Assembly (NCBI GenBank): GCA_965649765.1
Contig: OZ287749.1
Location: 7,502,001-7,566,000 of the forward strand
Origin: Bispira polyomma
Lineage: Eukaryota
DNA length: 64,000 nt
Direction of reading: 5' to 3'
Shown here: positions 4,211 to 61,486 of the stretch, one piece after another
Layout of the letters: the number at the start of each line of letters is the position of its first letter
Numbering within the stretch: position 1 is the stretch's first letter
Program-made: the position numbers and the translations under genes
The notes under the pieces: generated by a model
The model's input: only the letters and a program-made list of their open reading frames with translations
The model's database searches: none
Told to the model about the DNA's origin: nothing

Positions 4211-5999
4211 CAGTCGGGCCCATGGAACACTAAACTTTATTTTTTATACTTTGATACAAGAATTGCACAAAAAATATGTTTTTCATGAAATTTGTTCGAG
4301 GGCTGAGACTTGGGTCAAGAAACCAATAAATTTTGCAGCACATTCAGGTAGGCTTACTTCTTGGCACTGTGTTAGTAGAGGTATATGCTCTACGGAGTGC
4401 TCTCAACTGATTGTTAAGAAAACTCACAGAGTCCCCAGTATCATGTTATTATTGGTGTGGAGATCTTGTTATTAAGAACTCCCCCCTTTTGTTATTGTTC
4501 TATAGTAATAACAGTGTCTTTATCAGTCCACACCTGAGTTAGTAAGTAGATGATAAAGGAGCTGCCATTGATATCTACAGACACTGATTATTACTGGGAT
4601 ATATACTGTACAACCAGAAAGCTTCGCTGCTATAAGATTTTCACTAATAGCCCCCCAATAAAATAATTTTCAGTTTTTGGTCACTATGTTTTGTCTAAGA
4701 AATGAATAAAAATTGATAGTTTTCATTTAGAATAATTATGGTCAATATTCATCATCATCATTAGTGAAAATAGCTAAATACAGTTTCCAGGAAAACTTTA
4801 CATTCTTACAGTCAGTATATGTATAGAGAACCTATTACATACATTCTCAAAATAAATTCCACCTCAGGTAAAGTCTGAATTCAGGCTCAAACAATAATTT
4901 ACAATGTGCTCATACCTATGTCATTCATAAAGAATATATATATATATATAATTAAAGTCTCACTCCATATTTGAAGTCGGCACTGAAATTTAAATATACT
5001 ATTCATATTTCTAGGTCATCCCCATGTGTAAGGCTTTAGCCGCAGCCTTCAATTGAGACTCAAATGTTGACAATGAATTCAAGTTTTAGTGTAGCTTAAA
5101 AAGACAGTGAGAACTGGTTTAATAATACACTTATTTTCATTTCCCGACATAATTTGAGAGCTTCCAATTTTTGCTTATTGCATCTATTTCTCTGTACTAC
5201 TTTATATAATATTATAATGTGCCAGTTGTACCTAAACTATAAAATAGTTTTGTTAATCAATGGCTATATATATATATTTTTTGGGACAGAATAATAAACT
5301 TAACAACCTATTTGTTGGATGGTTTGGATAAATTTAGTAAAACCATTTATAACTAGATTGGGAAATTTGCGATTATACTGTGAAGTCAGGTGTTAGGAGG
5401 AGAGTTTGACCAGGGTTCTGTTTTCAATAGAGACCTCCCCAATCTACACTTACTGTAAGAAGATAAACTGTGAAGGTAGCCCATTGAAAACAGTGAGTAC
5501 TGGATACACATGCTGATTGACTTCAGTTGTTGGAGTCCGGTAAATGCTTTTTTGTGTTTTAAAGGAATGATCACGATTAAAATTTACCATAGACTATTTG
5601 TTAAATTGTTTAGTGACAGCAATAAGATTTATTTTTGGGGAAATTTCTTTCATATTATATGTTCTAATAGTGCTGTCGAATTTGGGGAGGTTTAAGTGAC
5701 TTTGTAAGGCTGACTAAATGTACAAGTGGCTACTAGGATGTGTTAATTGCTATTAAAAATAAAGATTGTTCATTGGATTACGGATGTTTTCAATCTGGAT
5801 AATTCTGTACACTGCATTGAAAAAATTTTGAATTTGATAACCAAGTTTGGGATAAAATCAATTGTTTAACACAGCTGATGTTGTAAAAAATGTATTTGCT
5901 GAATAAATAAATAGAATTACGAGTTAGTTTAAGTACATGAATAATATAGTTTAGAATTTAATGGGAGAGTTTTAATTTGTCACAAGACAATAAATCATC

Positions 6000-7284
6000 A
6001 TGTGGTCGTGTCAGTTACATATTCTAAAAGACACCCTGGATTCTAACGACCAAACACTTGAATGCCGTAACATGTGTCAGCAGAAGTTAGTGGATGGTTA
6101 CCAAGGAGATTTGTACTGCAGTTGTCATAGGACACATTGTAAGTCAAAAGGACAGGTAGAAGTGAATCCACTCAGAAAATATGAAAGGAGTTGTGATGTG
6201 GGGTATAGTGCGTCTTGTATTCCATCAGAACATTCTGGAAATGCTGATAATGGCAAAGAAAATGGTGCATATTCGGCTACAACTTCTGAAGTCATAATTA
6301 GTCATTTTAAGATGCAGGAAAGCACCCATATAGTGTCTGCAGGGCATTATTGTCATCATACTGTCCGATGTTCTGCAGGTGAGATGGTTGATACTCCTGA
6401 CGGACTGGTAAGACATGGGGGTAACTCTGGTATAGACAGAGACGAGGCAGGAGATCATCCTCATGATACCGTACTATTTACTAAAGATGACATGGTTGGT
6501 ACTTCAGGAAGACTGATAAGACGGAGAGGTAATTCCGGTATAGACAATCCAATTAAGGCGGGAGACTGTTGTAGAGTATGTGGGAATCAAGGTAGTAATG
6601 GATGTAATGAAAGTGGGATGATTGATACTTCTGACGAACTGGTGAAACAGAGAGGCAATGTTGGTATAGACAGTGACAGCATGAATAACTCGGGAGACAT
6701 TTATAGAGTATGTCAGAATCGAAGTGGTAACGGGTGTAATGACAGGCCAAATAGATCATGCAGCTCTTGTGTGTCCAGGATGGAAGAAGCCAAAACAAAG
6801 TACGTGTATCACGAACCTGTCTGGTCACATGTCAAAGGTCAGGTGACTTCAGCTACTAAAGTAGCTGGACATCGGAGGTTAATGGTGAACAATGTGGTAC
6901 AGGTGCCGAGTAGAGTTGGTATGAAGCTGCAGGATCCTAGTCACTCAAAGTCAATGAAAAGTCAAGTTGAGAGTTGTAGATTTAGGGACACAAGAGGCAG
7001 TTATAGTGGGGATACTACAGGTGGCTTTAGTAGTCCTGGGGGGAGGTGTATGTCAAAGAAAGGCCAAGTTGAAAGTCATAAGTGTCACATATTTAGGGAC
7101 ACTGGAGACAGTTATAATGGGGATACTCTAACTACCTCAGGTGACTTTAGTAGATTTGGGGGGAGGTGTATGTCACTGAATCTTGTTCAGCAGTTTAGAC
7201 ATTCCAGTACAGAGACAATACAGAGTCTCAGCTCAACAGATCACATTCCAGATCCACTCAGTGAGAAGATAAGACTGCTGCAGT
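6000..7284 (+). CDS. SYNE1: Candidate alternative first coding exon B, 428-aa Cys/His/Gly-rich N-terminus ending SEKIRLLQ-Y
   Basis: Long ORF from ATG 6000; CAG T|GTGAGT donor at 7285, phase 1; the join gives RLLQYEQERVQKK, resembling nesprin RLQDEQE. Confidence 0.7.
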
Positions 7285-8085
7285 GTGAGTACTATATGCT
7301 ATATGTCTTCAGAGCTTTTAAACCAAAGATACCAGTGATAGTGGCCCGAAAATATAGAATCCCTGGGCCTCAAAAACCACAGAAAAAAACAAACTTTTTG
7401 GGGACTCCTATGTTGACATTCTTGATTTAGACCATCGGTTATTATCCTTTACCTTATTGTCACTTCCAAACACCCCCACCCCCCCTCCCCCCCAAAAAAA
7501 AGCAAAAAAAAGTGTAGTATAGAATACTCTCTAAACTTCGCAATTCTTAATCGTGATCCTTATGTACATATATTTTTAGAGCTTCTAAAACATGGACATT
7601 ATCACAAAATGTTTATTATGTCATAACTCATAAGCATTAGTGATAAATTGATAATAGTATACAAAGTAAGTGTTTAGGAAAGACTGAAAGTGGGTTATAA
7701 AACTGGTTTTAATAAGTATAAGAACTTATTCATGTGAGAATGAAACTGTTAGCATCCATTTGTAAAAAGTACAAGTGTATTAAGTTGTCTTATGCATGGT
7801 TAATGTAAGATGTTGAGTGTCAACAGAGTGCAAAAACTTACACCATTAGAGAACACAGCGACAAAAAGTGAAAAAAAATCCTATATCTACCCTAATAGAT
7901 TCCATATAAATCTCTCCCTTATGAATGAATTATGGTAGTAGCCAAAATAATGGGCGTGTGTGTTGGCCACTTGCTGTCAGTGGCAGGTTATGAACAAATT
8001 TGAACATCACATAAATATGTAAAAAGTGATGTTAGCTATTAGTGATCGGAAGTTATTCACATGGACACTTATATACGTTTAAATA

Positions 8086-14592: not shown

Positions 14593-14699
14593 GGGGTGGT
14601 ATTCACAAAAGGACTAAGCCAAGACTTTGTCTTAGATTTAGTATACTTGTGCACTAGATCTGAGATAAGTCTTGGCTTAGCCCTTTGTGAATACCACCC
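14593..14699. mobile_element. MITE family 2, ~107-bp near-palindrome (TIR GGGTGGTATTCACAAA)
   Basis: Ends are reverse complements; related copies at ~19082-19190, ~25551-25673 and 44922-45773. Confidence 0.8.
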
Positions 14700-15996
14700 T
14701 AGGTTATTTGTTTAGACTAAGGCCCTCTGTGAATACCACCCTGGGTTATTTGTTTGGACTTAGGCCCTTTGTGAATACCACCCTAGGTTATTTGTTTAGA
14801 CTTGGGCCCTTTGTGAATACCACCCTAGGTTATTTGGTTAGACTTGGGCCCTTTGTGAGTACCACCCTGGGTTATTTGTTTAGACTTGGGCCCTTTGTGA
14901 GTACCACCCTAGGTTATTTGGTTAGACTTGGGCCCTTTGTGAGTACCACCCTGGGTTATTTGTTTAGACTTGGGCCCTTTGTGAGTACCACCCTAGGTTA
15001 TTTGGTTAGACTTGGGCCCTTTGTGAGTACCACCCTGGGTTATTTGTTTAGACTTGGGCCCTTTGTGAGTACCGCCTTGGGTTATTTGGTTTGACTTGGG
15101 CCCTTTGTGAGTACCGCCCTAGGTTATTTGTTTAGACTTAGGCCCTTTGTGAGTACCGCCCTGGGTTATTTGGTTAGACTTGGGCCCTTTGTGAGTACCG
15201 CCCTGGGTTATTTGTTTAGACATGGGCCCTTTGTGAGTACCGCCCTGGGTTATTTGTTTAGACTTAGACCCTTTGTGAATACCGCCTTGGGTTATTTGTT
15301 TAGACTTGGGCCCTTTGTGAGTACCACCCTGGGTTATTTGTTTGGACTTGGGCCCTTTGTGAGTACTACCCTGGGTTATTTGTTTAGACTTGGGCCCTTT
15401 GTGAGTACCACCCTAGATTATTTGTTTAGACTTGGGCCCTTTGTGAATACCACCCTAGGTTATTTATTTAGACTTGGGCCCTTTGTGAGTACCACCCTAG
15501 GTTATTTGGTTAGACTTGGGCCCTTTGTGAGTACCGCCCTGGGTTATTTGTTTCGACTTGGGCCCTTTGTGAGTACCGCCCTAGGTTATTTGTTTAGACT
15601 TAGGCCCTTTGTGAGTACCGCCCTGGGTTATTTGGTTAGACTTGGGCCCTTTGTGGGTACCGCCCTGGGTTATTTGTTTAGACTTGGGCCCTTTGTGAGT
15701 ACCGCCCTGGGTTATTTGTTTAGACTTGGGCCCTTTGTGAGTACCGCCCTGGGTTATTTGGTTAGACTTGGGCCCTTTGTGAGTACCGCCCTAGGTTATT
15801 TGTTTAGACTTAGGCCCTTTGTGAGTACCGCCCTGGGTTATTTGGTTAGACTTGGGCCCTTTGTGAGTACCGCCCTGGGTTATTTGTTTAGACTTGGGCC
15901 CTTTGTGAGTACCGCCCTGGGTTATTTGGTTTGACTTGGGCCCTTTGTGAGTACCGCCCTGGGTTATTTGGTTAGACTTGGGCCCTTTGTGAGTAC
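14680..15996. repeat. 42-bp tandem satellite, about 31 copies, derived from the right end of MITE family 2
   Basis: Unit TAGACTTGGGCCCTTTGTGAGTACCRCCCTRGGTTATTTGKT; first unit overlaps the MITE TIR. Confidence 0.95.
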
Positions 15997-16372: not shown

Positions 16373-16434
16373 ATGAACAAGAAAGGGTACAGAAGAAAAC
16401 CTTCACAAACTGGATGAACTCCTACCTCATCAAA
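16373..16434 (+). CDS. SYNE1: CH1 exon (D/Y)EQERVQKKTFTNWMNSYLIK
   Basis: TTTCAG acceptor, GTAAGT donor, phase 1-0; actinin-type ABS1 motif QKKTFT. Confidence 0.95.
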
Positions 16435-17471: not shown

Positions 17472-17567
17472 CATGAAACTCCACAGCGTGTTGAAGATTT
17501 GTTTAAGGATATCTCCACTGGTGTTCATCTGCTCTATCTCCTGGAAGTTCTCTCCAACGAGCGGCTG
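17472..17567 (+). CDS. SYNE1: CH1 exon HETPQRVEDLFKDISTGVHLLYLLEVLSNERL
   Basis: TTTTCAG / GTTAGT, phase 0-0, DLFxD..G..LL.LLEVLS motif. Confidence 0.95.
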
Positions 17568-18905: not shown

Positions 18906-18989
18906 CCAAAAGCAAAGGGGACCCGCACCAATCGGTTACATCACATCAGTAACGTGAAAACAGCGCTCAAATTCCTGGAAGACAGGCGG
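18906..18989 (+). CDS. SYNE1: CH1 exon PKAKGTRTNRLHHISNVKTALKFLEDRR
   Basis: TATAG / GTAAGT, phase 0-0. Confidence 0.95.
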
Positions 18990-19981: not shown

Positions 19982-20074
19982 ATCAAACTAGTCAACATTA
20001 ACTCTTCAGATATTGTAGACGGCAAACCCTCCATAGTTCTGGGTCTAATATGGACTATCATCCTTTACTTTCAA
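19982..20074 (+). CDS. SYNE1: CH1 exon [31 protein letters not shown]
   Basis: TTTTCAG / GTAAGA, phase 0-0, ABS2 motif. Confidence 0.96.
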
Positions 20075-20366: not shown

Positions 20367-22587
20367 TTTTTTTTTTTTATTTCTTTTTTTTTTACTTAAC
20401 TAAACGTATAAAATTTTTTTAACAATCTCTGCACACTTAAATAGTCACTGAATACATATGCTTATTGAAAAAAAATAAAATTTTTTTAAACAACAATAAA
20501 AAGATAAAGCAAAGCCTTGTTTTAAACCTCAATTTCTTAAATGTCTATACCTGTAAAAATATTTTCCCACATTACCCACCTTTTATTAAAGATATCGGTT
20601 TGAGAATTAATTATCGAGAGTGTCTTTTGTTCTAAAAATTTTCTTTTTGCTTCCTTCTGCAGGTAATAGATATTAAGTGGAAAGTTTTTCTTGGAGCACC
20701 AATAAATATATCTTCTTATTACCAAAAGTATCAAGTTCAATGGCCAAAAATGTCTGTCTAAAGATAGATAGCCAAATAGTTTTGTAGTGTTGCTCATTTT
20801 TAAGTGTATTCCTAGCTTATTTGTGATCCATTGTCTAACATTTTCCCATAGTTGAACAACTTGTGTGCAATCACAATACAAATGCTCAACGCTCTCTGCA
20901 TGTTGCTTACAAAAACTACATTCATTATTTGTTGATATTTTTAACTTTTTCAGATAATCTTTAGTTCCCAAAATTTTATAAAGGATTCGGCAATGAAACC
21001 GAATAAGTTTATTGTCCTGTATACTCTTAAAACATATTCTATAAACCAAAGCCCACCTATCTTCTATCTCAATATCTGTGTACTCATCTCTAAATATGTC
21101 TCTCCATATTATTTCGCAAAGTGGTTTTTCTTTTGGGTTGGCCCTATTGTAAACATTGTAAAATTTCTTGCATCCTTGATAACTTTGTATAACTGCATTC
21201 AAATGTAATGGATATGTTGGCTTTTCAAATACCCATGGAGACTTACTTGCATGCTTTGAAATAAAGGATTTAACATTTAGTTTTACTGTATAGTAGTTCA
21301 AGATGTTAACATTGCAGTTAAATTTGTGATTAATCTCATCAATAGTCAAAATTTCTCCATGTAAATCAATGATATCCCCTATCATATATATTCCACTTTT
21401 GTACCAATCTAAAAAAAATGTAGGGTTATCAAAAATATGCGAGTTTTACCAAATGCAAGTCCTCAAAATATCCGAATTAGAGGTGCAGGTTTGTTTCTTA
21501 CATAAATCTACCCAATATTCTAGAACATTTTGCCAAAACTTATTGTGGGTTTTTTTTTCAAAATTGTGTTATACCACTCATTGCCAAAGGTTGTGATATG
21601 GTTAATGTTTGTATACAGCTCATTAAATAATTTCCACCATTGAGAGCTTGATGAAGTTAGCAATTTTTTTTATCCAACTTACTTTGAGAGCTTTTTCAAA
21701 GTTATAGATATTTATCATTTTTATCCCACCTTGGATGTAGTTTGAACAAACAGTGGACCTCTTTATTTTGTCAGGTTTTCCATTCCACAAGAAATTATAC
21801 AAAATATTATTTAAAGTTTTCATAAAAGAATCTGACCTTTGTATTGATTTTAACAGGTGGATGGATACATTAAGAAATTATAGTTGTCTTTATTATTGTT
21901 ATTTTACCAAATGGTGTTAAATATCTATTATTCCATTTTTTTACTTCTTTCTTTATATTTTGTAAAGCTTTTTCATAGTTTAGCCCTGGTATTTCATTTA
22001 ATTTTGTTGAAAATTCAAGTCCAAGCATGGTAAATTCTGTCTTTCCCCATTCAAGTTTTACAGATACGTTTAGCTTATCTCTACAAAACCGTTTTCGACC
22101 GATCCAAATCATCTTTGTCTTCTCTTTGTTCATTCTCAAACCAGATATATTCCCAAAAATTTCTAAGGTGTTCAAAGCTGCTTGTAAGGAGTGCTGACTA
22201 CCATCTAGTAGCAAAGTGGTGTCGTCCGCAAACTGTGTTAGTCTAAATTCTGCCTTATCAATTACAATCCCAATTATATGTGTGTTTATTTTAATTAATA
22301 CTGCTAATATTTCGGCGGCGATTAGGAATAGATACGGTGAAATTGGGTCGCCTTGACGGCATCCTCTTTTTATAGGAATCTCTTTGGATAAAAATCCACA
22401 TTGTAAAACATAAGCCGTTATATCTGTGTTAAAAATTTTTATCCATTGCATTAGATTCTCACTGTAGCCAAAATATGTCAAAACTTTATATAAAAATTTC
22501 CAAGAAAGAGAATCGAAAGCCTTTTCAAAATCAATGAGCATCAAAAGGCCTTCAATGTTCTTAATTTCTGTTGCATGTAAAATATCA
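20367..22587 (-). mobile_element. 5'-truncated L1/Tx1-clade non-LTR retrotransposon (broken RT + C-terminal Cys/His region)
   Basis: RT motifs LIDFEKAFDS, RGCRQGDPISPYLF, QFADDTT; CSFC..ESVEHL..C; ORF split into three pieces; poly(A) seen as a T-run at ~20365-20393; TSD TTAACATTTGTT at 20355-20366 and 22588-22599. Confidence 0.93.
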
Positions 22588-22653
22588 TTAACATTTGTTA
22601 GATTTTGAGTCAATTTTAAGATGTTGAATATGCTTATCATTGACATTTCTTAG

Positions 22654-22838
22654 ATTGAAGAACACACAAAGATTCTCAGTGAACAGGCTCTAAATACACC
22701 GATGAGCAGCGAGACGAGTCTAACCAGCACAGACAGTGGCGCCCCGGCGGTGAAAAAGGCGAAGGCACAACCTAAAGTGTTAGCGCGGGGAGGAGCGAGG
22801 AAAACACTGCTAAACTGGGCACAGCGGGCAGTTACTAG
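22654..22838 (+). CDS. SYNE1: Ser-rich CH1-CH2 linker and CH2 first helix (IEEHTKILSE...GARKTLLNWAQRAVT-R)
   Basis: CTTAG / GTGAGT, phase 0-2; long linker typical of nesprin/calmin. Confidence 0.93.
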
Positions 22839-28600: not shown

Positions 28601-30110
28601 GAAAATTCTAATTTTCGCTGCGAATATTTTTGTTCTTAATCTTTTTTCGTTTAACAAATTACAAAAAAATTATTCCAAACCCAAGCAACATCCATACGTA
28701 TTCACAAGGTAATGAATAATTATACTACAATGTGTATATAAAAAAATAATCAAAATATTTTTTTAAACAAAAAATTGACCATTATTAAAGAAATAATTCC
28801 AGGGAATTTTCCCAAGATTAGTAAAAATTAGTGAATTTTTCTTCCACATGCGTACACTTTGTACCTCTTAATCTCCGGCCTGTATAAACTTTCACCCCGT
28901 TCCATTAACGAGATCAATTAGAAGTAAGTAGTACATATGTGTGTGTGTGTGTGTGTGTGGGGGGGGGGGGGGGGAATGGCAAAACCTGTACACTAAATGC
29001 CTGGTGGCGTTTAAGGCAATTCAGATTACAAGTCAACCAATCAGATTAGTGAGGGTCCCCATTCTGTACTTCTTATCATTTTTAGACACTGGATCCAGAA
29101 GGAAGGTTTTTTTTATTGTGTGTCTAAGAAGTATTGACAGTGTGTACACAATACCTGTGTCACGGATCAGAAGGTCGCCGGTCGTAAGGACATCCCCCCC
29201 CCCCCCCCCCCCCCCCTCTCTCTCTGGCATGTGTGTACACAATATGTGTGTGTATAGAGGATTGTAGACTTGTAGTGGATCCTGCTGAAGCCAATTGAAC
29301 AAACACTATAGAGACATCAGTCGTTTTCTTTTGGCTCGGGAAATGGAATTGTCCGCTTGAAAAAAGGCCACCCTGTTTAAAGGGGAGAGATATTCTAATT
29401 AATAAAAACCACATAACAAGCCTAAATATATAGTGGAGTAAATGTAGAGTCTTGTTGGATCCCGTGTGTGTATGTGTGTCTATTTAAGAATATTATAATG
29501 GAGGTGGGAGAGAGCTCAAAACTATTGATGAATATATTAGTGTACACACACACACAAGGGATTTTGTTAACAAACTAGAAATGTCATGCAAGTTGAATGT
29601 GTAGGGGATATTATGTGTGTTTGATGAATAGGAAATCCAGAGAAAAAAGAATTTGTTTTTGTAGTAGACAAAAATCTGGGAAATTATCATATTTTAGGCT
29701 GAAACATGCCTGTGTTTGACATGTATATTAGTTTGAGTGTGTATCTGTAAGACGGTCAGTACAAATATGGTGTTAGACATTAAATCTAAGGCAGGATAAC
29801 TTCAAAGATACACTAGAAGATTTGGTTATATTATAAGTGGTTTACATATTTCTGTTGACGGTTATTATCTGCTATATAAACTTTTTATGCTGGATAAACT
29901 GTCTGTGTTGTTGTGGAGTATAACTGTAAACAAGTATAAGCAATATCTGTGAAGTTTACTGCAGTTTAACTTTGCTGTAAGATTGACTGGAATTTCTCTT
30001 TTGTTGAGACTAATTAGAAGAAAGGATTACATACTGCTGACTGGGGATGGGCTACTTCCCTGGGCAGTGGTCAGTTCAGAGATCTGCACCCTGGGGGTGG
30101 ACAGTTGGAA

Positions 30111-30160
30111 GAGGGGCGGGGGTTAACGGTCACATGACGTGATAGACAGGAAGGCGGGGT
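30111..30160 (+). promoter_or_regulatory. Putative internal promoter elements (GC boxes, CRE-like TGACGTGA)
   Basis: GAGGGGCGGGGG, CACATGACGTGA and GGCGGGG in a GC-richer island about 500 nt upstream of ATG 30647. Confidence 0.3.
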
Positions 30161-30646
30161 CTCTGGGCAAATGTATCTGGGCACTGATATACCGTAACGA
30201 CCTTAAAAACCCTCTACTTCCTGTAAAACAAACACTAACTAACCCTCTTAAAAAACCCCTGCATAGGCTCACTTTTATATCTCTTGATATGGATCGTAAA
30301 ACTTTGTATGTGTGCAGAGAAAACCATATTACGCAAACTTGAGACGCGGTATTAACTTAGATACTTCTGCTATATTGTATAACTTAAAAACTTTTTGAAA
30401 ACTTTGTTGATTGCTTATTAGATAGTCTTGTTTGTGTGTTTTTTCTTCGCTTGGAAATGTTCAGTAAATTAGTAAGTTACTATTTGCAAGGATAGAGAGC
30501 AAAGGTAGAGGTAAACATCTTGTGATACCAATAAAACACTACATAATGGTAAAAAATATGTTCCAAAGTATAAAGTTTTAAGAGATTTACATATATAGAA
30601 AAAAACAAAAAACACTCTCACAAACTACCAGTTATTGTATTTGAAC

Positions 30647-32148
30647 ATGTCGTCACGACATACACCAATGGACGTAGAACAACGTCCCTCTACACCCGTT
30701 AAGTCTAAACGGTCATATGGTGCATCTAGGCGGGACGAGGAGGAGGATGTGGAGTCACATGATTTGAAACCAAAGAAACGTCATGACAGCAAGTATAAGT
30801 CGGACATAGCGATATCTCCGCATCGATACTACTCCCCATCAGGCCAGCCCCTGAGTGAGACCAAGGGGTACTCCCCGGAGAGAAGGGGCCATCTGCCCTC
30901 AAAAGGTGGGGGGCGCTCCCCGGAAAGGGGGCATCTACCCTCAAAAGGTGGGGGGCACTCCCCGGAGAGGGGGCCCCGCAGTAGTAGGACCAGCAACCGA
31001 CAGCACGACGGGAGTCATGACAATAGACCCTCTAAACAACATCACAGTAAAAAGATGGAGAAACCATCAGAGACAAAACACCGTCACTCTTCTGATACTG
31101 GTCGTCATAGGGATGAGGGAAGTCCACGACATCATCACCAACACCACCAGTATAGTACAGAGTACACTAAGTCTGATGGTAAGCGGTACAGCAGTAGTAC
31201 CAGGGACAGGCATGATTCTAAGGAGGACAGACAACACAGCAAGCATCCTCATCATCACGATAAGTCTCAGTCTCCGACACACAGGGAGATATCAGGGAAG
31301 TTTGAAAGACGGCTGGATGACAGTAGCCACCACAGCATTAGGCCTCAGTCTACGTCCATATTAGAAGGGAGCAGCAAGCGTACCCGTCCCAGTAGTAGGA
31401 CCAGTGAGCCGAGTGGCAACTTTGAGTATATCAGACCGTCGTCGAAGAGTCTGAGCAGAGAGGAGCTGCATTCTTCTGGTGGTGGTCACCACGGCGACAA
31501 GCATCGCCTAGAGAGAGGCAAGAGTCAGAGCACGGCCCAGTTGGAGAGGGTTGGCAGCAGCAGCTCGGGGCGGGAACAACGCAGTGGTCGCCATGGTGAC
31601 AAGCATCATCTGGAGAGAGGCAAGAGTCAGAGTACAGCACAGCTACACATGGTCGACGGCAGCAGGGAACGTCTTAGTGGTCGCCATGACTACCGCTCCA
31701 CGGACACCTTACTACACAAGAGGTCAAGCCGATCTAGTGCTAAGAGTATGGAGAACTTATTAGACCGGTCTGTGTCTCCGGCCCGTTCGGACACCAGCAC
31801 GGGAAGTAACAAGAAGCTCATGCTGAAGTACATGATACACGAGGTGCGGGAACTGAAGCGACAGATTGACCCAAACGAACCCGACATCCACATCCGTCAG
31901 AAAGGTCGAGGTCATGACCAGTCCGGATACGAGGGCTCTGGATCCGACCTATCAGATGGAGAGGGAGGGGGTGGGAGGAGTAGGCTGGGGCAGTCATTGC
32001 GGGAAGAACCACAGAGGAGGCAGCTACCCACTACCCCACAACAGCTCAACAGGACCTACCCTCCCAGGGAGAGGGCGTCTAAGGGGCACGGAAAGCATAG
32101 GAGTTTTACTAAGGAGGAGAAGAAACAGATGCTACAGCTTCTTAAAGA
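30647..32148 (+). CDS. Intronic ~500-aa Ser/Arg/His-rich ORF: probable internal first exon of nesprin (or a nested single-exon gene ending at TAA 32152)
   Basis: 1.5-kb GC-rich uninterrupted ORF from ATG 30647. It ends AAA GA|GTAATG, a phase-2 donor compatible with the acceptor at 34352. Confidence 0.7.
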
Positions 32149-33104
32149 GTAATGAGTTTATTATATAGAGTTATTTATTTGTATGTAGAGTTTTCTCTGT
32201 ATTCTTGGATTTTATATGTATTTGTTCTGTTCACCTAGCCACAAATTACGTTGATTCTATTATTTGATGTCACTTTACAGAAAACAAAGCATATTAAAAC
32301 ATAGGAATATTGTACTTTCACATATAAGAAATAATAATAATTATATTTCTCTAGCGTCAAGATTCAGTCAAGTGTCTGTTCCAAGGCGCTTTACAAATGG
32401 CAAGTCACTTAAAACACATACTCTTACAACTTATTTGTCAAGAAATATAATGGTGGCATAAATAAATAAATAAGTTTAATTTTTATCTAAAAGCGTCAAC
32501 AGAAACAGATGTCTTTTAGTAGAGGTTCCATAATGTTGGTGAACCGAAAATGCACAACCACCAAATGTTTTGCATTTTGACTTTCGAATCAAAAGTTGGA
32601 GCTTATTACTGGAGCAGGTTATCTGACAAAATTCCCTTTTTGTCTTGCTGTCCTAACATGTTTGGATCATAAAGGTTATACTGTACGTAATATTGCAAGT
32701 ATGTTTCAGCTTGATGCTGTCTCTTTGAAAATAGATCAATTTGTTTTTTGCTCACTTTTTTATTTGTGAGACAAAAGGATTAAGTTCAAACTCAATCAAT
32801 AGATTTCACCATTTTCTGTCAAAAGGGTTTCTCAATAAGCGTAATTGAATCAGAAAAAAGGTGGAATGGTAACAATGTGTACTTTATTCTATAGAAAAGT
32901 GTCAACTCCCACAATTCATTGGCTAACAAGGTTCACTAATGCATGGAAAGGCTTTTTTGAATACAGATTTAATGGCATTTGTGACAAATGACATTTGTAA
33001 ATAAAGTCTTGAGTTGTATGAATGCATGAGATTCATTGATTTTGATGGTCAATGTAAAGTCTTACAGACAATGATTATATGGAAGGTAGAATCTACTTGG
33101 TTTC

Positions 33105-33550
33105 AGTGTGCGTTTCCATGCAGGCAACTTTTTGAGGCGATCAGGCGACGGCCGACGGCGATTCTATCAGTTTCATTGATTTAAAACCAAGTGTTTCCAT
33201 GTGAGCAACGCCGACAGGCGACAGGCAATGCCAGGCGATTTTTTTCGCTACTAGGAACAAAAAAAAATCGCCTGGCATTGCTGTCGCCTTGTAAACATTG
33301 CCGATTTTGTTATAATAGCTCAAAAATTACTGAAGGTATAAATTTAATGAAAATATGGTGAGGAAGCTTATTTTATCGGGTATATTGTGCTATTTGTTGC
33401 ATCAGAATCGGTTTAGAAATGGTTAAGATATTCAGGTTTAAAACAGGTATCTATTTTCCCAAATAATTGTATAGAAACATAAAAATTAAAAATTGCCTGT
33501 TATACGTCGGCTGGTCGCCTCAGAAAGTTGCCTGCGTGGAAACGCTCACT
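33105..33550. mobile_element. Non-autonomous DNA transposon with ~40-bp TIRs
   Basis: GCGTTTCCATGCAGGCAACTTTTTGAGGCGA ... TCGCCTCAGAAAGTTGCCTGCGTGGAAACGC. Confidence 0.75.
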
Positions 33551-34351
33551 TATCTAGTGATAAATCAAGTGACAATGATTTTTAAACCTGACTCAAGCAA
33601 AAAGCTTGTTAGAATTTACTGCATGATATTTCTAATTAAATCTGATTTTCACACATTACATGGAATTTAATTTGTAAAATGACAAAGTTCTTTTCAACTA
33701 AGACTTTATATTAAGGTAATTTAAGTTTAAAATTTTTTCTTACAAATGCAGAACTTCACAACTGACAATTACAACTGAAGGGGGTGGGGGGGGGGATCTA
33801 TACAGAAATATTAAATAATGTAATTACTACATAAAAAGTGTACACCCTACATGTGCAAAAATGTAGACAGTCCACAGGTGAACTCCTGATATGGGACAAA
33901 AGTGATATGGGAATATTCAGTTTATTAGACACAAGCATACAGGACATTAGGGCATTTATGATATATATCTAACATCCAATGTTAATAGGTTAATACATTA
34001 AACATCTACTACTTATACACTAAGAGAGGTGACCCCCAAAGATTGAGGTTACCTAAAATTAATGTTAACTTGATACTAAAGTTAGCGAGGTTACTTAAGG
34101 TCACCTTAAGTTGTGTGGTGATCTTAACTTTAGTTATATTGTGGTTAGTTTAAGCAAGTTTGATGTAAGGTTACCTTACATCTGCAACCTTGTAAGGTAA
34201 ACATAAAGTTATAGGTTTTAATATTATTTATACTATATACTATATGTTACTAAATATACTGTCAACATATAACTATTAAAATGCCCTAAATATATATGCC
34301 ATGCTTATCAATGTACAGGTTTTACTGTATCAGTCTTTGTGTTTTTTATAG

Positions 34352-34548
34352 GAAATACGGCATAGAAGTGCGCGACTTTGGCCCGAGTTGGCGCGACGGA
34401 CATGCCTTTAATGCAATGATCCACAACATTAGACCCGAACTGGTGGACATGCATCGACTGCCGAACTACCCTAACAGAGAGAACCTGGAGCGAGCATTTA
34501 ATGCTGCGGAGCATGAGCTGGGGATTCCTCGCTTACTGGATGCTGAGG
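34352..34548 (+). CDS. SYNE1: CH2 exon KYGIEVRDFGPSWRDGHAFNAMIHNIRPELVD...LGIPRLLDAE
   Basis: TTTTATAG / GTAAGG, phase 2-1, classic CH2 motifs. Confidence 0.96.
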
Positions 34549-34960
34549 GTAAGGATTGCTCAGTTAAGTGGTCATTTATTGACTGTCCCCAACTTGGAGG
34601 ACTCTGAGGGTAAGGGTTGGTCAGTTAAGTGGTTGCTCATTGACTCTCCCCAATTTAGAGGACTCTGATGGTAAGGATTGGTCAGTTAAGTGGGCACTCA
34701 TTGACTGTCCCCAACTTAGAGGACTCTGAGGGTAAGGGTTGGTCAGTTAAGTGGTCACTCATTAACTGTCCCCAACTTAGAGGACTCTGAGAATAAGAGT
34801 TGGTAAGTTATGTGGTCATCAATTGGTCATCCTCTGCTTACTGGACTCTGGGGGTAAGGCTTGGTCAGTTGGTGATTCCCTTCTTACTGGACATTGAGGG
34901 TAAGGCTTGAGTAGTGACCAATTGGTGATCACCCTCTTACTGGAGCCTGAGTGTAAGGCT
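34523..34960 (+). repeat. 61-bp array spanning donor 34549, about 8 copies
   Basis: TGAGG|GTAAGG-like at 34549, 34610, 34671, 34732, 34854, 34900. Confidence 0.9.
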
Positions 34961-36543: not shown

Positions 36544-36647
36544 ATGTGGATGTGGACAAGCCTGACGAAAAGTCCATCATGACTTACGTGGCCCAGTTTT
36601 TGGAGAAGTATCCAGATCCAGATGTTGATTCCTCCTCTCAGGCAAAG
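36544..36647 (+). CDS. SYNE1: CH2 end DVDVDKPDEKSIMTYVAQFLEKYPDPDVDSSSQAK
   Basis: CTTAG / GTCAGT, phase 1-0. Confidence 0.96.
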
Positions 36648-38300: not shown

Positions 38301-38486
38301 CAGTAGAACCTCGACTATCTGAATATATTTGGGAAAGCAAGATTTTGTTAGAAGCTTAATAAAATAGAAGATGCGGTTTTTATTGTATAAAACATTAGGA
38401 ATGCATGAAACTTGAGGAGAGTGGAAATTTGTTCAAAAATTTAAATATTTGAAATATTAGAAAGTTCAGATAATGGAGGTTTACTG
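38301..38486. mobile_element. MITE family 1 copy ending 30 nt before the giant-exon acceptor
   Basis: TA|CAGTAGAACCTC...GGAGGTTTACTG. Confidence 0.7.
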
Positions 38487-38516
38487 TTGTTTTTGCTCTG
38501 TCACAATCTCTTACAG

Positions 38517-41500
38517 CCGCAGCCTGAGCCCCTCTGCCTGTTTGGGCAAGATTCCACCCTCATAGCCCACCTCAGTCCCCATAGGCCCCAGTATGAGGAT
38601 CGCTATAGTCCCCTGCCCACCCCAGCCCCGAGACAACTCAGTCCGTCACTCTCCTCCCCTGGATCCCAACGGCTAGTCTCCCCGAGAGAAAACATGGCCA
38701 GATCTCAGCAGGAAGTGGGAGAGAATGTCCCTGAGACCCTGCCACCTTTGGGTCATACAAGGCCATCTGGCTCAGTAGCGTCTCAGGATTCAGGCCTATT
38801 AGGCAGCAGATCGGTGATTGCACACTTCAGACCATCCTCTCTGTCACTGAGTCCACAGTCTGTATCCAGTGCCACCATCCATCATCAGTCCAGCTGTAAA
38901 CTAGACATCATCTTGGCTTCTCCAAGGTCAGGGTGGAACAGGACCAGCACAGGTTCAGATGACCAGGTCTTTAGGTACAGCGACGACTTCCAATCAGAGT
39001 TCTCTTATGGCTTACCAAGGTCAGGGATGAAAATAGACCCTCAGAACGTGGACTTTGCAAAGAGTTTACACCAGGAGTTGCTCAAACTCCCAAGACGAGT
39101 TGAGAACCCCCGTTCAGCACCTTCATCCCCAACGCTTCAACGCAGACGAGCTTTATGTAGTACAGAGGATGTTCACTACCTGAGCAGTGGCCACAGAATC
39201 AAAAGCTACGAGTTTGGCGACAGTTCCTCCCTGTGTCATGGCAGACTGACTGGGGAGAAGTATTTTACGTACCCAGAAAGGTCTAGTAGTATGGAAGATT
39301 TGAACCCGCAAAGAAGAGTATTGAGCTGGTTGAATCTATCAGAGAATTACAACATACCTCCCCCTTCACCTGTACCTGAACATATACAGAAGATATTCAA
39401 TAGCCAGTGGGAGTTTAAGTCCACCACACCAGGTAAAAAGCCCTTAGAACATGCACCTGGTATACAGGCACACAGTATCAATGCAGTGGATATTCCAGGT
39501 GATACTTTAGATAACAATAATAGCACAGTTGAAGCAAGTCTACAAAACAAACCAGTGGGTGGAATGGAATCCCATGCATTTGATGCATCCTGTCTCAGTG
39601 TTGTTATCCCTGGAGAAGGTATGCTCTCAAGCCTAGATCCAAGCAGTAACTATACCTCACTACAAGAGTCTCATATTAAGGGCATACCTGTCTCACCTGC
39701 TTCAAGGCACACCTCAAATATAGCTACTGCTCAGCCGCAATATGCGATACTGCACAGTCCTTGTGATTCTTTAAGATCGATGTCTTCCTCCTCAGAATCG
39801 GATGTGTTAGAAGGGGGCAAGTCTAGAAGACATAGAAAGCTTATGAGCATACAGCTGGGTGAAGTCGTCACAAACAGGATCATTGAAACTGTAGAGGAGG
39901 TGATCTTGTCCATCGCAGAACCCAAAACAGGGGATGTTCAAGTAGAGTCTGTCAGTGAAGTTATAGAAGAGGTGAGAGGTGAAGAAGGTAAAGTAAGTCA
40001 AATACAAGGGGTGAACACCTCAGACCTGTTGCCTTATACCACAGAGGAAGAAGAAGTAGGTAATGTACATCTAGGGAGTACAAAGCTCTATGCAACTGAA
40101 CATATTGAAGAAAGTTTGATAGCAGAAAAGGAAGGCTTTAACCGCATTAACCTAGAAGTCAGGGTAGATGAACATGGTGGTGGGAATGAAGAATTGGCAG
40201 ATCTGAATATAGATGCCCTCAAGTCTGAAAAAACAAGACAAAGGAGCAAAGATGATATGGATACTGTACCAGGTGAAACATCTGACAGAAATGTTTCTGA
40301 GGATCTGGACATACATGTAGTTACAAATTGCTCCGATGGAGGGGAAGGAAAAAGTACAGATGAACTGGTAGGACAAGATCAGGAGGACAATAGTCTGGTC
40401 AGGAAAAATGGACAAATATTCCTAGATGAAGAACAGTTCCAAGTTGTGGAGTCAACCAAGAAAGATGAAGGTGAACCACCTGCTGTTAGAGACAGATTAC
40501 CAAGTACTGAAAGGTATGAGGAGCTTCTAGTTCTGGGGAAAAGCAGTAAAACTGTGACTGTTAATGCAAAGACTTTACATAGGGATGTCAAAATTATAGA
40601 AACATCAAGGGATGACTTCCAAATGCAAAATACAGTTAATGATAATACCAAAATTATTGGTAGCCAACAAGGTAGGAAGTCAGTGGGGACCATAAGTGAG
40701 AACCAAAAGTCAGATGCAGAAGATGTCAGTAAAGGTGGACAGAGTGAACATGATGAGGTCCAAAGTACAAGTAGTTCAAGAGATGTGAATTTGCAAAGGG
40801 ATAGGAAAACTCTTGAAGCACAAGATGTCAGTGATAATCTGACACAGTATGGAGAGAGTCAGGGTAAAGAACTGCCTGATATTGGAGGTACATCTTTGAG
40901 TACAGCTTCTAGTTACAAAGAAGGTACTGATATCTTGAAGGCAGGGAAAATAGCAGAAATCACTAAAATAGATGAATCTGGTAAAACAGATGTGGCTCTT
41001 GGTGAAATGAGTCTAACATTAGTTACAGCTGGAATTCAGGGAATTGGTAAAGAAATGGGCAAGACTGAACTAAAGAGTACAGAGAGATTTGAAGAGAAGA
41101 TAGTTCTAGTGATGGACAGAAGAAGGAAACGGATAAGACTGCCTTCAGGAAAAAGGTGGACAAGAAAAACTCAACTCTCAGAAATGTCTGTCAGGGTCAC
41201 GGAGGAAGTAGTTGAGCAGGAAAAAGAGGTACCTGATGTCAAGGCTGAACTGAAAGGAACAACAGAGAGTGATAGTATGGTTAAGTCAAAACATGGCATA
41301 GGGTTTGTTGATAGCCTGGTTACCAGTATATCAAATGGTAAAGGAAATGATATAAAGGAAGACACCATTGGAAGTGGTGAACCATCTGCTACTAATGTCA
41401 GCCCAGATACCCATAAAAAGGAAGAGTCTGACAATGACCAGTTGAAGCTGGATGTCTCTGTAGCAGATAGGGATACTGGAACGGATGCATCAACAGAAAA

Positions 41501-43901
41501 TAATGCTGTAGAAGTCACAGTTGATCAAACTGGGCTGAAAATTACTGAAATATTAGAAGATGAGACAGTTGAGGTAATAGATATTGGAGAATTTGATGCA
41601 GACATAATATTTCCTGTTGGGCATGATAACGGCATTAGTGAGGTTGTTGATGAAGATGCCAAAAACATGGCAGATGACAAAGATCCAGTGTCCAGTAATG
41701 CTATAGAGAATATAGAGGCACAAGATGGACAAAACGCTAATGATGTAAAAGATGAGGTATCTGCTATGAAAGGTAGAGATAGTGAAGACGATGAGTCCTT
41801 GGGTACAAAGGAAGGAGAGATCCTTCAGGCAGGAGGTTTAGGAAGCCCAGACAATGTGGGACAGAGTCTCCCTGGTGACATGGTAAGTCAGGAGAGCATA
41901 GAATCCAGGATTTTAGTCCCAAATGCAACACCACAGGGTTTAGAAGAGACTGGCACAACAGATATGACTGAAGGTGTATCAAAAGCTGAAGGGCCTATAT
42001 ATAGAGAGCCGGATACGATAAGCAAAGATATGGAGGATATTGTTGATACAATTGCTGAACTCAGTATTAAGGAGCAAGAGACTGGGTCACTTATTAGTGG
42101 AAGCTCAGTGGATGGGGTAACTGGTCAAGGGTCACCTGTACCTGAATTAAGTTTTACTATGAAAAAGGAAATGGGTGATGCTTCCCTAGATGAACCATCA
42201 GTAGAAGCCACTAGAGTGGATGATAGTGTCATTGCGTGCACCACAGAGGATACCCTAGTAGTTACCCTAGACAACCAAGATGGTCAGGGATCACCTGTAT
42301 CTGATTTGAGTTTAGCTATGATAAAGGAAATGGATGAAACTTCCCCAGATGAACCATCAGTAGAAGACATTGGAGTGGATGATAGTGTCATTGCATGCAC
42401 CACAGAGGATACCCCAGTGGGATCAGATGTACCTGATTTAAGTGTGACTCTGATGAAGGACATGAATGATACTTCCCCAGATAAACCATCAGTAGAAGAC
42501 ATTGGAGTGGATAATAGTGTTATTAAGCCCACTACAGAGGATACCCCAGTGGTTACCTATGACAACCAAGATGGTGAGGGATCACATGTACCTGACTTGA
42601 GTTTGACTCTGATAAAGGAAATGGATGATACTTCTTTAAGTCAGCCCTCAGTAGAAGACATTGGAATGGATGATAGTGTCATTGCTTGCACCACAGAGGA
42701 TACCCCAGTGGTTACCTATAACAACCAAAATGGTAAGCGATCACATGTACCTGATTTGACTTTGACTCTGATAAAGGAAATGGATGATAATTCTGTAAGT
42801 CAGCCCTCAGTAGAAGACATTGGAGTAGATGTCTGTGTCAGTGAGAGTATTACAGAGGATACCCCAGTGGTTACCCCTGAAAACCAGGATGTACCTAAAT
42901 TGATTGGGGAATTGGTGAATGAAATGGGTGATACTTCTCAAGATAAACTATCAGCAGAAGGTGCTGGAGTAGACATTGGTGTCAGTGAGTGCAATACAGA
43001 GGATAGTCTAGTTGTTGCGTCTGACAACCAGGATGGTCAAGAATCCTCTGTCCCTGAAATTGATGGTACTTCTCTAGATAAACCATCAGTAGAAAATACT
43101 GGAGTAGACACGGGTGTCTTTGAGTGTATTATAGAGGATATCCCAGTGATTACCCTTGACAACACAGATGCTACTCGGTCAGTGTTACATGATGGCAGAG
43201 AAGTGATTCGGGATAGCCCTGTACCAGTTGACCAAAAAGAGGCAAAACCTGAACAACGGCAGGCAGTAGGGTCGATGGATATGGAAGATGGTAGACCTAG
43301 TCAATCAGTGTTACATGATGGCAGAGAAACATCTTTGGATATCCGAATACCAGTTGACCATAAAGAGCCTGATCTACCAGAGGTGGTAGGGTCGGTAGAT
43401 AAGGGCAATGGTAGACCTACTCAGTTGGTTTTAACTGATGGTAGAAAAACATCTCTGGATACCTCAATATCAGTTGACCATAAGGAGCCTGAACTACCGC
43501 AGGTGGTAGGGTCGGAAGTATTAGAAGATATACCTACTCAGTCAGTGTTACATAATGATAGAGAAGAGATTCTTGATAGTCCTGCATCAGATGGCCATAT
43601 AGATCCAAAGCCTGAACAACTGCAAGTGGTTGGGTCGGTGGATGTTGCAGATGGTACACCTGATGGCAGAGAAACATCTCTGGATAGCCCTGTACCAGTT
43701 GACCACAAAGAGTCTGAACTACCGCAGGTGGTAGGATCGGTAGATGTAGCAGATGGTAGACCTACTCAGTCAGCGTTACGAGATGGTAGAGAAACATGTC
43801 TGGATACCTCAATACCAGTTGACCACAAAGAGACTGATTTACCGGAGGTGGTAGGGTCAGTGGATGCAGCAGATGAGAGCCCCTCACCAGACACCAAGGA
43901 G
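38517..43901 (+). CDS. SYNE1: Giant (5385 nt, 1795 aa) low-complexity, mostly acidic exon; cassette 38517-43901, or terminal exon reading to TAG 44006
   Basis: TTACAG acceptor in phase 0 with the 1839-codon ORF; GAG|GTGATA phase-0 donor at 43902; both flanking exons are phase 0. Confidence 0.75.
42123..43160 (+). repeat. Coding ~159-nt (53-aa) tandem repeat in the giant exon, about 6-7 degenerate copies
   Basis: GQGSPVPDLSLTxxKEMDDTSxDEPSVEDIGVDDSVIACTTEDTPVVTxDNQD units; first two start at 42123 and 42282. Confidence 0.85.
43170..43875 (+). repeat. Coding ~120-nt (40-aa) tandem repeat in the giant exon, about 6 copies
   Basis: PTQSVLHDGRETSLDxxxPVDHKEPELPQVVGSVDxxDGR units. Confidence 0.85.
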
Positions 43902-43924
43902 GTGATACACTATGTTAGTGCTAA

Positions 43925-44584
43925 GCATGCAGGCATGGAGGAGGTGGACTGTGTTTACCTTGTGGAGGGAGGTTTAGTGGCTGCTGCTTTTGTTGAAACG
44001 GCCTAGCATGTTTGGCTGGCATGGGCTGATGCAGTATTAAGACGTTAATCCTGTGTGTTTTCTAGCTTTGGTGAGAGCATAAGAATCCCTCTTTTGGTGG
44101 TGAAGCTTTGGAATGCTATAGTCTCTCATTACCATGCAGACCTCTAACATTCCTGCAGTTTATGCCTATATACTCCCACTCTTACAAGTGTTTGTCCAGG
44201 TTTTTATCAAAATGCAATACATGTTTTTTGAGATGCAAGTTTTCTTAAACTACACTGGTAATACAGTTTTGGTATGCAATATTTGGACCCTGAGTAGTTG
44301 AAATAATGCATGTGATAAAAAATACATGGACAAACATTTTGGGATAGTATTAAAACCTTTTGACTTTTTCAGGATAAGGAAACTCCCTGTTCATTACCAT
44401 TTTAAGCAATACCTTTATAATGCATGGGTGCATGTTGTATAGATAGTCTTATATTAAAATGTTCTACAGTGATTTTAACTAATGGTTTTAAGAAGCTTTT
44501 TCATGTTTGGGGGATTGTGGCTCTTATTGTTTTGTTATATATTTTATATGGTCATGTATTTTCTTTTTAGGGTTGTGGTGCATG
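43925..44584 (+). promoter_or_regulatory. Cluster of (T)GCATG Rbfox-type splicing elements downstream of the giant-exon donor
   Basis: GCATG at 43925, 43933, 44006, 44019; TGCATG at 44307, 44421, 44429, 44579. Confidence 0.55.
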
Positions 44585-48396: not shown

Positions 48397-48612
48397 GGCC
48401 TCAGTGGCGTAGAGGTAACACTCTCGCCTCCCACATTTGCAATCTTAGGTTCAAATTTCGGGTCCTGGCTTGTCTGTGGGAAAGTTGGCAGTAGATTAAG
48501 TGCTGAATGCCACTGGTTTGCAGTTGCAGAAATCTTGACCAAGTACCCTGTTCAGTATTAATAAAATATTATCTTGTTTAGAGCAACGTTGAATGGTAGA
48601 ACCCCTAAATAA
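48397..48612 (+). mobile_element. Old tRNA-derived SINE (third family)
   Basis: A-box-like GTGGCGTAGAGG, B-box-like GGTTCAAAT, TGTGGGAAAG core as in family A. Confidence 0.45.
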
Positions 48613-48665
48613 AGTATGACTAAAAGGAGAGATTTTGATCTTTGTTTTCTGTGCGTCTTTTTCAG

Positions 48666-48821
48666 CTTGTTACTGATGTCAAACATCAGCTGGAGGAAGC
48701 GAGACGTCTGGCCGAGCAGGAACAGAGCGAGTTTGACGATCTGTGTGAGTGGATGAATGATGCACTCAATACACTGACCATAGTGGACAGGCCAGTGGAG
48801 GACAGAGACCAGGAGTATCAG
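48666..48821 (+). CDS. SYNE1: Rod exon LVTDVKHQLEEARRLAE...RDQEYQ
   Basis: TTTTCAG / GTAACT, phase 0-0. Confidence 0.9.
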
Positions 48822-49385
48822 GTAACTGGCCCTGTGACTGACCATATAGTGGACATACCTCAATACACTGACTATATAGTGGACAGACCTCCATACACTG
48901 ACCATAGTGGATAGGCCAGTGGAGGACAGAGACCAGGAGTATCAGGTAACTGGCCCTGTGACTGACCATATAGTGGACATACCTCAATACACTGATCATA
49001 TAGTGGACAGACCTCCATACACTGACCATATAGTGGTCATACCTCAATACACTGACCATATAGTGGTCAGACCTCCATACACTGACCATATAGTGGACAT
49101 ACCTCCATACACTGACCATATAGTGGACATACCTCAATACACTGACCATATAGTGGACAGAGCTCAATACACTGACCATATAGTGGACAGACCTCAATAC
49201 ACTGACTATATAGTGGACAAACCTCAATACACTGACCATATAATGGACAGAGCTTAATACACTCACCATATAGTGATATAGTGGACAGAGCTCAATACAC
49301 TGACCATATAGTGGACAGACCTCCATACAATGACCATATAGTGGACAAACCTCTATACACTGACCACATAGTGGATAGGTCAGTA
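48766..49385 (+). repeat. 124-bp duplication of exon end + donor, plus a 30-bp minisatellite derived from exon sequence
   Basis: Identical GAGTATCAG|GTAACTGGCCC at 48822 and 48946; unit ACTGACCATATAGTGGACAGACCTCAATAC. Confidence 0.92.
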
Positions 49386-49707
49386 GATGACAGGGATGAA
49401 AAGTACCAGATAATGAGGGGGAGTGTATGGTCATGAGGGTGTTTAACTTAGTAATGTGTGGGTGTACTAACTAGAGGTGGGTATAAATAACAAATAAAAC
49501 CAAGTGGTGGGTGCCAAATAGGGCCCAAAACAGTTCTATGTTTTAGCTACTAGCGATGTAAAATTTTCTTTAAGATTTGCAGAAAAATGGATTAGATCAA
49601 GATTTTAGGTTAATTAAAATACTGACTATAATAAAAGGCCAATGTTTTCAATAGGTGATGCGTTTTATCCCACACACTTGTACATTATACACCTGATGTA
49701 TTTGTAG

Positions 49708-61342: not shown

Positions 61343-61486
61343 GGATATTTCAAGGACATTACCTACTACAAACAAATGCTGGAGAGTAAGAACAAGGTGT
61401 TCCAGAGAGTAAACAAAAACGGGGCCAAATACCTGAATGTGAGGGAAATGGAGCAACAGATGGTGGAGTTAAACCACGCCTTTCAG
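61343..61486 (+). CDS. SYNE1: Spectrin-repeat exon GYFKDITYYKQMLESKNKVF...ELNHAFQ
   Basis: TTTCAG / GTGAGT, phase 0-0. Confidence 0.92.

Follow-up and report, generated by a model that had tools for sequence, protein, structure and literature searches.

A likely alternative first exon of nesprin-1 within the intron that splits its CH2 domain

We analysed a window of 64,000 nucleotides of Bispira polyomma DNA and found that a 501-codon frame on its plus strand is likely an alternative first exon of nesprin-1, predicted to splice to the exon that begins at 34352 and recurring in four distant lineages. Its place in the gene, its phase and the footprint of its donor are conserved among four lineages at saturation for synonymous changes, which supports an alternative first exon that would be spliced in phase 2. 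The original prediction of an internal first exon joining the CH2 exon is supported to this extent; the splicing itself we infer, because no junction-bearing protein or transcript was found.

Nesprin-1 and the frame inside its CH2 intron

On its plus strand the window includes the 5' portion of a nesprin-1 gene (SYNE1/MSP300-type), the rest of which runs past the window end. Alignment showed that the CH1, linker and CH2 exons and at least 12 spectrin-repeat exons are collinear with gastropod and fish nesprin-1 records, so that the host gene has the N-terminal CH1-CH2 pair of nesprin type and a spectrin-repeat rod of which 12 exons align to nesprin records. A Pfam match to Spectrin_SYNE1 was also obtained, with an E value of 6.7e-6 under the curated cut-off, and the orthologous CH2 exon of locus L002, used as query, retrieved nesprin-1 records, the top named matches being gastropod proteins. 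The original prediction had drawn a parallel with spectraplakins; CH1-less spectraplakin isoforms do exist, according to the accessible parts of PMC3352950 and bioRxiv 10.1101/122010, but the host here is nesprin-1 and not a spectraplakin. The features discussed below are the following.

16373-16434, 17472-17567, 18906-18989 and 19982-20074, plus strand: the four exons coding for CH1 of nesprin-1, which the proposed isoform is predicted to lack
22654..22838, plus strand: canonical exon encoding the linker between CH1 and CH2 together with helix A of CH2, entered at a phase-0 acceptor and left at the phase-2 donor AG/GTGAGT
30047..30200, plus strand: GC-rich patch, a putative promoter within the gene, with a GC box and motifs resembling CRE/E-box
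30647..32148, plus strand: 500 codons and two bases of coding sequence of the likely alternative first exon, for a disordered Ser/Arg/His-rich head
31802..31873, plus strand: conserved helix of the core motif KKxMLKYMIHEVRELKRQxDP (aa 386-409), like CH2 helix A in its first half
32018..32038, plus strand: RxLPxxP class I SH3-ligand motif, aa 458-464 (motif definition from PMC10657410, PMC4536467)
32045..32065, plus strand: conserved LxxTYPP-type motif, with [TP][YF]P in 14 of 22 heads
32108..32149, plus strand: amphipathic terminal helix (aa 489-500), in which a Leu three positions ahead of the junction is nearly invariant
32149..32208, plus strand: weak phase-2 candidate donor GTAATG with an in-frame TAA, then a U-rich tract (54% T)
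32350..32500, no strand assigned: dispersed repeat whose A-rich tail holds AATAAA, identified from read depth and candidate matches
34352..34548, plus strand: shared CH2 exon with a phase-2 acceptor, Pfam CH at E 6e-14
36544..36647, plus strand: final CH2 exon, from homology to nesprin records

The frame runs from the ATG at 30647 to the TAA at 32150-32152 (501 aa), inside the phase-2 intron that splits CH2. It was covered by one contig in each of three DNA runs with 0 differences; the three runs, which behave as DNA, come from 2 samples of 1 study and are possibly the source of the assembly itself. A single copy of the head was found in the organism's own genome (1.035 Gb, 75 contigs). As foreseen in the original prediction, the head is basic and rich in Ser, Arg and His (17%, 12% and 8.6%, respectively, with a pI of 10.2) and disordered, the AlphaFold2 model built with 22 sequences having a pLDDT below 50 at 404 of the 501 residues. 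Two helices only are present in this model, at residues 386-407 and 489-500; the last 120 residues folded alone gave the same two helices with a pTM of 0.29, which is uninformative on docking. Pfam placed the window head in no family and gave 4 single stray matches among the 22 members, fold searches with the head led to no usable match (best Z 2.8), and the ESM Atlas search returned one 0.75 lead and one blank. We found also short internal duplications in the head (window 30890-31700): HLPSKGGG occurs twice (aa 82 and aa 96), as does a unit ERGKSQSTAQL (aa 287 and aa 321).

Other long frames and repeats were observed in the window. A 478-codon frame without Pfam match lies 5' of the CH1 exons (5994-7430) and contains, after ...KIRLLQ, a phase-1 donor T/GTGAGT near 7284 that fits the phase-1 acceptor at 16373; from its sequence it is probably another long first exon, for a CH1-containing isoform. 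Between the last CH2 and first spectrin exons, an acidic repetitive frame of 1853 codons (38445-44006), also without Pfam match, shows no consensus-like donor within its last 400 bases and may be an alternative terminal exon of an isoform that would combine CH domains with disorder in a calmin-like manner. The intron before the linker exon holds minus-strand fragments at 20537-22649 that, by their motifs, presumably resemble LINE reverse transcriptase. Intronic tandem repeats were seen at 14681-15934, 34549-34960 and 48558-49470, those after 34548 reiterating the donor-like AGG/GTAAG of the CH2 exon.

The two ends of the frame

The last 137 head residues, searched against 1.84 billion representatives, gave 17 homologues at E <=0.001, and none of the 10 looked up had an informative name. 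From a metagenome scan with 176 pattern matches, 6 loci were confirmed, and in 4 of these 6 fetched loci the ORF stands just 5' of the same CH2 exon: L002 repeats the window order (three CH1 exons, linker exon, ORF, both CH2 exons), and in L003, L005 and L006 the ORF lies 762-1090 nt ahead of that exon. The sequences of L004 and L007 end too early to reveal it. The window and the fetched loci represent four lineages, L004-L006 being mutually 86-93% alike; between lineages the head identity is 23-41% and the fourfold sites of the CH2 exon are saturated, with 2-6 of 13-15 alike. No junction-spanning protein was found among 100 candidates of 878-2505 aa, 17 representatives and 4 matches of 52-877 aa, nor among 110 CH2 matches of 292-2000 aa, which are mostly vertebrate nesprin-1 and none of which carries the head; three of the four protein ranges searched (top 2505 aa) are shorter than full-length nesprins.

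The last ORF codon overlaps GA/GTAATG at 32148/32149, and the phase match claimed in the original prediction was recovered, phase 2 being shared by the canonical donor (22838), the candidate donor (32148) and the acceptor (34351/34352), with an in-frame Glu as junction codon. All 22 aligned heads share one end position; the DNA ends NN/GTAA in 6 of 6 cases, and the junction codons are in frame in 5 of the 5 that are testable. Of the 18 proteins in alignment A1, 14 end at the aligned position; the remaining four all read on with Tyr, as expected from GTAY, an outcome with a chance of 0.007 if TAA were lost at random. The last residues of the heads (E, K, Q, T, M) allow a G-ending codon in 22 of 22, and L004-L006 keep the final G as ACG, a codon used elsewhere 3 times out of 44 in those three ORFs; over the four lineages the rough joint chance of a G before TAA is 0.024 under a plain stop. 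As GAG is the common Glu codon of the window ORF (27/37), the final G in the window alone says little. Judged from sequence, the shared end, the NN/GTAA and the Tyr read-through look like the footprint of a conserved splice donor.

The distance of this donor from consensus is a point on which the earlier reading made no mention. Both -1G and +5G are missing in 6 of 6 candidate donors, compared to 0 of 24 constitutive donors, of which 17 have -1G and 22 have +5G (Fisher p 5e-5, counted as 4 lineages); the 24 were located by homology, and the alignment end at 61441, which has no donor, was left out. Ranked by a small matrix among all GT of the window, the candidate donors come within the top 11-37%, and the window donor has a score of 1.5, near the bottom of the six. 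The T fraction is 0.39-0.54 after the candidate donors versus 0.20-0.41 after 22 constitutive donors, and L004 and L005 are 76% alike over the first 29 bases past the donor, then 35%. Since a stop followed by a 3' UTR would look alike, the weak donor and the T-rich downstream sequence are the chief evidence against splicing. Weak donors can be aided by a U-rich enhancer of TIA-1 type, and a donor helped in this way also fits the weak donor and T-rich tract. In the 5 ORFs of 5, no stronger phase-2 donor was found 3' of the core motif. Our reading is that the donor is genuine and kept weak, and that the in-frame stop would cleanly end any unspliced message. A bulged U1 pairing at the donor, which gave a better match in 2 of 4 lineages only, is not claimed.

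Concerning the sequence 3' of the frame, the original prediction had offered as its alternative a stand-alone gene using AATAAA near 32461. The hexamer is present, at 32461 and 32465, but in the tail of the dispersed repeat, for which 40 of 40 scored candidates match and the read depth is 374-600 compared to 9. An ATTAAA is found at 32293, 3' of the ORF stop. Poly(A) hexamers are near chance in the 5 complete introns (9 vs 6.3, 1 vs 0.9, 1 vs 2.4, 2 vs 1.6 and 3 vs 2.1), and the canonical signals counted across loci showed no conservation in place. The same intron contains a MITE-like element with 46-bp terminal inverted repeats (33105-33550) at a depth of about 60,000-94,000 versus 9.

At the other end, the GC box GGGGCGGGG announced in the original prediction was located at 30113, its only plus-strand copy in the window, together with the CRE-like TGACGT at 30135; such motifs are missing upstream in 4 of the 4 homologous loci checked, and no TATA box was found near the GC patch. 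A GC-rich patch at -600 to -500 is present in the window (58% GC) and in L002 and not in L007. L005 and L007 share a non-coding block of 100 columns, 95% identical, about 300-390 bp 5' of the ATG; the stretch from block to start is 41-56% identical, and the coding identity of 84% is under the 95% of the block. This block, at about 190-290 of L005 and about 2040-2140 of L007, is possibly a promoter or RNA element. An 11-mer common to it and to the window GC patch was rejected as being at chance level (25% of random stretches). An in-frame phase-0 AG lies 2-8 codons ahead of the ATG in 5 of the 5 loci with upstream DNA (CAG at 30631 in the window), with scores of -5.5 to +0.4 that are under all 23 constitutive acceptors (1.7-14.8). 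The MSSR start is also found in P0003. On these sequence features a first exon is favoured over an internal exon. Before the ATG, the interval 30289-30600 of the window contains five short upstream ORFs (7-17 codons) and a donor-like GTAAGT at 30471, which may point to a 5' UTR intron or to control of translation.

Helices and SH3-ligand motif of the head

The core motif is the most conserved part of the head and is internal, 82-280 residues before the end. On a helix-A profile, its KKxMLKYMIHEV half is the top window in 20 of the 20 heads holding the motif whole, with scores of 11-21, about half those of held-out true helix A (35 and 39), and with Trp replaced by Tyr; the shuffle p is <=0.03 in 19 of the 20 heads and 0.16 in P0003. 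The terminal helix in spliced register scored -2 to -18 on the same profile, the P0014 terminal window being mis-cut in this scoring with the core result unaffected. The helix-A likeness is a lead only, because the profile, made of 41 nesprin 14-mers, is mostly vertebrate and was chosen by a pattern favouring this match. A head profile matched helix A of vertebrate nesprin-1 weakly, at E 0.008-0.06. The position three before the junction is hydrophobic in the terminal helix and Val in the canonical exon.

The swap of the first CH2 helix proposed in the original prediction stands in so far as the canonical helix A, in exon 22654-22838, would be skipped; the look-alike is not the terminal helix but the internal motif about 100 residues upstream. 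The CH2 of the isoform would hence not be intact in the canonical sense, with a look-alike only being supplied. The likeness suggests that the exon arose by copying of the linker exon and that CH2 may be completed by the internal helix. Docking of the internal KKxMLKYMIHEV helix where helix A sat has, in our estimate, a little less than an even chance; it is rather unlikely that neither helix docks at this site, and unlikelier still that the terminal helix docks in place of helix A instead.

Between the two helices, RxLPxxP is found in 12 of the 22 heads, compared to 0.19 expected, and is missing in 10 of 22; the window copy, RQLPTTP, is at a site without helix or strand in the model. This class I SH3 motif binds RIM, CaV2 and Aplip1 to RIM-binding protein (RIM-BP), as described in the accessible portions of PMC10657410 and PMC4536467. 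As for the RIM-BP ligands in those portions, RxLPxxP often follows a basic run, and the RQLPQVP of RIM is close to the window RQLPTTP (PMC4536467, PMC10657410). Unlike for these ligands, the case here consists of the motif match, and RxLPxxP is a general class I SH3 motif. The motif in the head is likely an SH3 ligand; a neuronal role of the head would be a guess. A subset of the heads (P0007, P0013-P0016) has in common an extra loop motif, E[KR]x[YF][ST]K.

Alternative readings and the proposed isoform

Three other readings of the frame were weighed. If it were a stand-alone single-exon gene nested in the nesprin intron, the TAA would be a plain stop and the product a free disordered adaptor of 25-55 kDa; this agrees with candidate donors devoid of -1G and +5G in 6 of 6 loci, with 17 of 17 database homologues being stand-alone ORF calls, and with a U-rich stretch past the stop that could be 3' UTR, T or A after TAA and the ATTAAA at 32293 also fitting. 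It leaves unexplained, however, the G before TAA (even as the rare ACG), the Tyr in 4 of 4 read-throughs, the fixed end and the phase match; the hexamers are at chance and unconserved in place, the cited AATAAA belongs to a repeat tail, and the entries in the database resemble ORF calls on genomic sequence, from which splicing would not be visible. We consider this gene improbable.

Less probable again is an internal exon, mutually exclusive with the linker exon as its phase-0 to phase-2 tandem duplicate, by which CH1 would be retained and followed by a 500-residue spacer and a rebuilt CH2. The in-frame AG ahead of the ATG in 5 of 5 loci, the partly similar residues from AG to Met across loci and the helix-A look-alike, which suggests a duplication of the linker exon, speak for it, but these AGs score like random AGs, under all 23 constitutive acceptors, and both the non-coding block conserved upstream and the conserved Met start are in keeping with a first exon. 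An internal exon of 1.5 kb that is weak at both ends is unlikely. The window donor, by its score of 1.5, near the bottom of six, could also belong to a first exon of ancient origin with a donor that has degenerated in this species, the frame surviving as a remnant or as a head-only product; yet three other lineages are equally weak, the G is retained and the frame is intact with all its motifs, and we regard such decay as the most improbable of the readings, the common GAG (27/37) making the window by itself say little.

Under the preferred reading, an alternative first exon of nesprin-1, a putative internal promoter would start transcription ahead of a 1.5-kb coding first exon, and the conserved weak phase-2 donor would join it to the 34352 exon, giving a nesprin without CH1. 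With CH1 missing, strong actin binding would likely be lost, judging from the CH2-only spectraplakin isoforms, for which weaker F-actin binding is described in the accessible parts of PMC3352950 and bioRxiv 10.1101/122010. The exon would bring its own substitute for helix A, rebuilding CH2, and docking of the internal helix would loop out a disordered segment of 82-280 residues presenting the SH3 ligand, so that an SH3 scaffold, and not F-actin, would be the target of the isoform. With a donor that is weak and has a TAA in frame inside it, part of the transcripts may remain unspliced; that these give a head-only protein is possible but somewhat doubtful. The boldest version, in which an ancient invertebrate first exon rebuilds the split CH2 by an internal helix-A mimic, the loop shows an SH3 ligand of RIM-BP type, thereby turning an actin anchor into a synaptic-scaffold anchor, and the weak stop-holding donor toggles between a giant isoform and a free head competing for partners, is speculative and unlikely to hold as a whole.

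In the Shot C-type, MACF1a3 and dystonin/BPAG1 type 3 isoforms, similarly, CH1 is lost through an internal promoter with a new leading sequence (accessible parts of PMC3352950 and 10.1101/122010). In these descriptions, which give no position for the junction, the CH2-only spectraplakins keep CH2, whereas the nesprin-1 case would enter inside CH2, after helix A, and, unlike them as far as these descriptions go, the new exon has a look-alike of helix A at 82-280 residues from the junction, on its 5' side. The internal-promoter isoforms of nesprin-1/Msp300 resemble it in that many start exons and termination sites exist per gene (PMC3388047, PMC8616381 and PMC11230431, in their accessible parts); they are grouped there by having or lacking CH domains and none is described with part of the CH pair, though the supplementary isoform tables could differ. 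No description of a nesprin isoform of this type was found in the literature searched, which mostly consisted of papers open without subscription.

The frame would represent an apparently unannotated, deeply conserved isoform of nesprin-1, which would tie nuclei or organelles to an SH3 scaffold and not to actin. It would allow one to ask, in a natural setting, whether a helix from 100-280 residues away can complete a CH domain, and it would be a clean case of a donor that is weak across saturated lineages and contains a stop codon, in which switching between a giant product and a small one would be testable.
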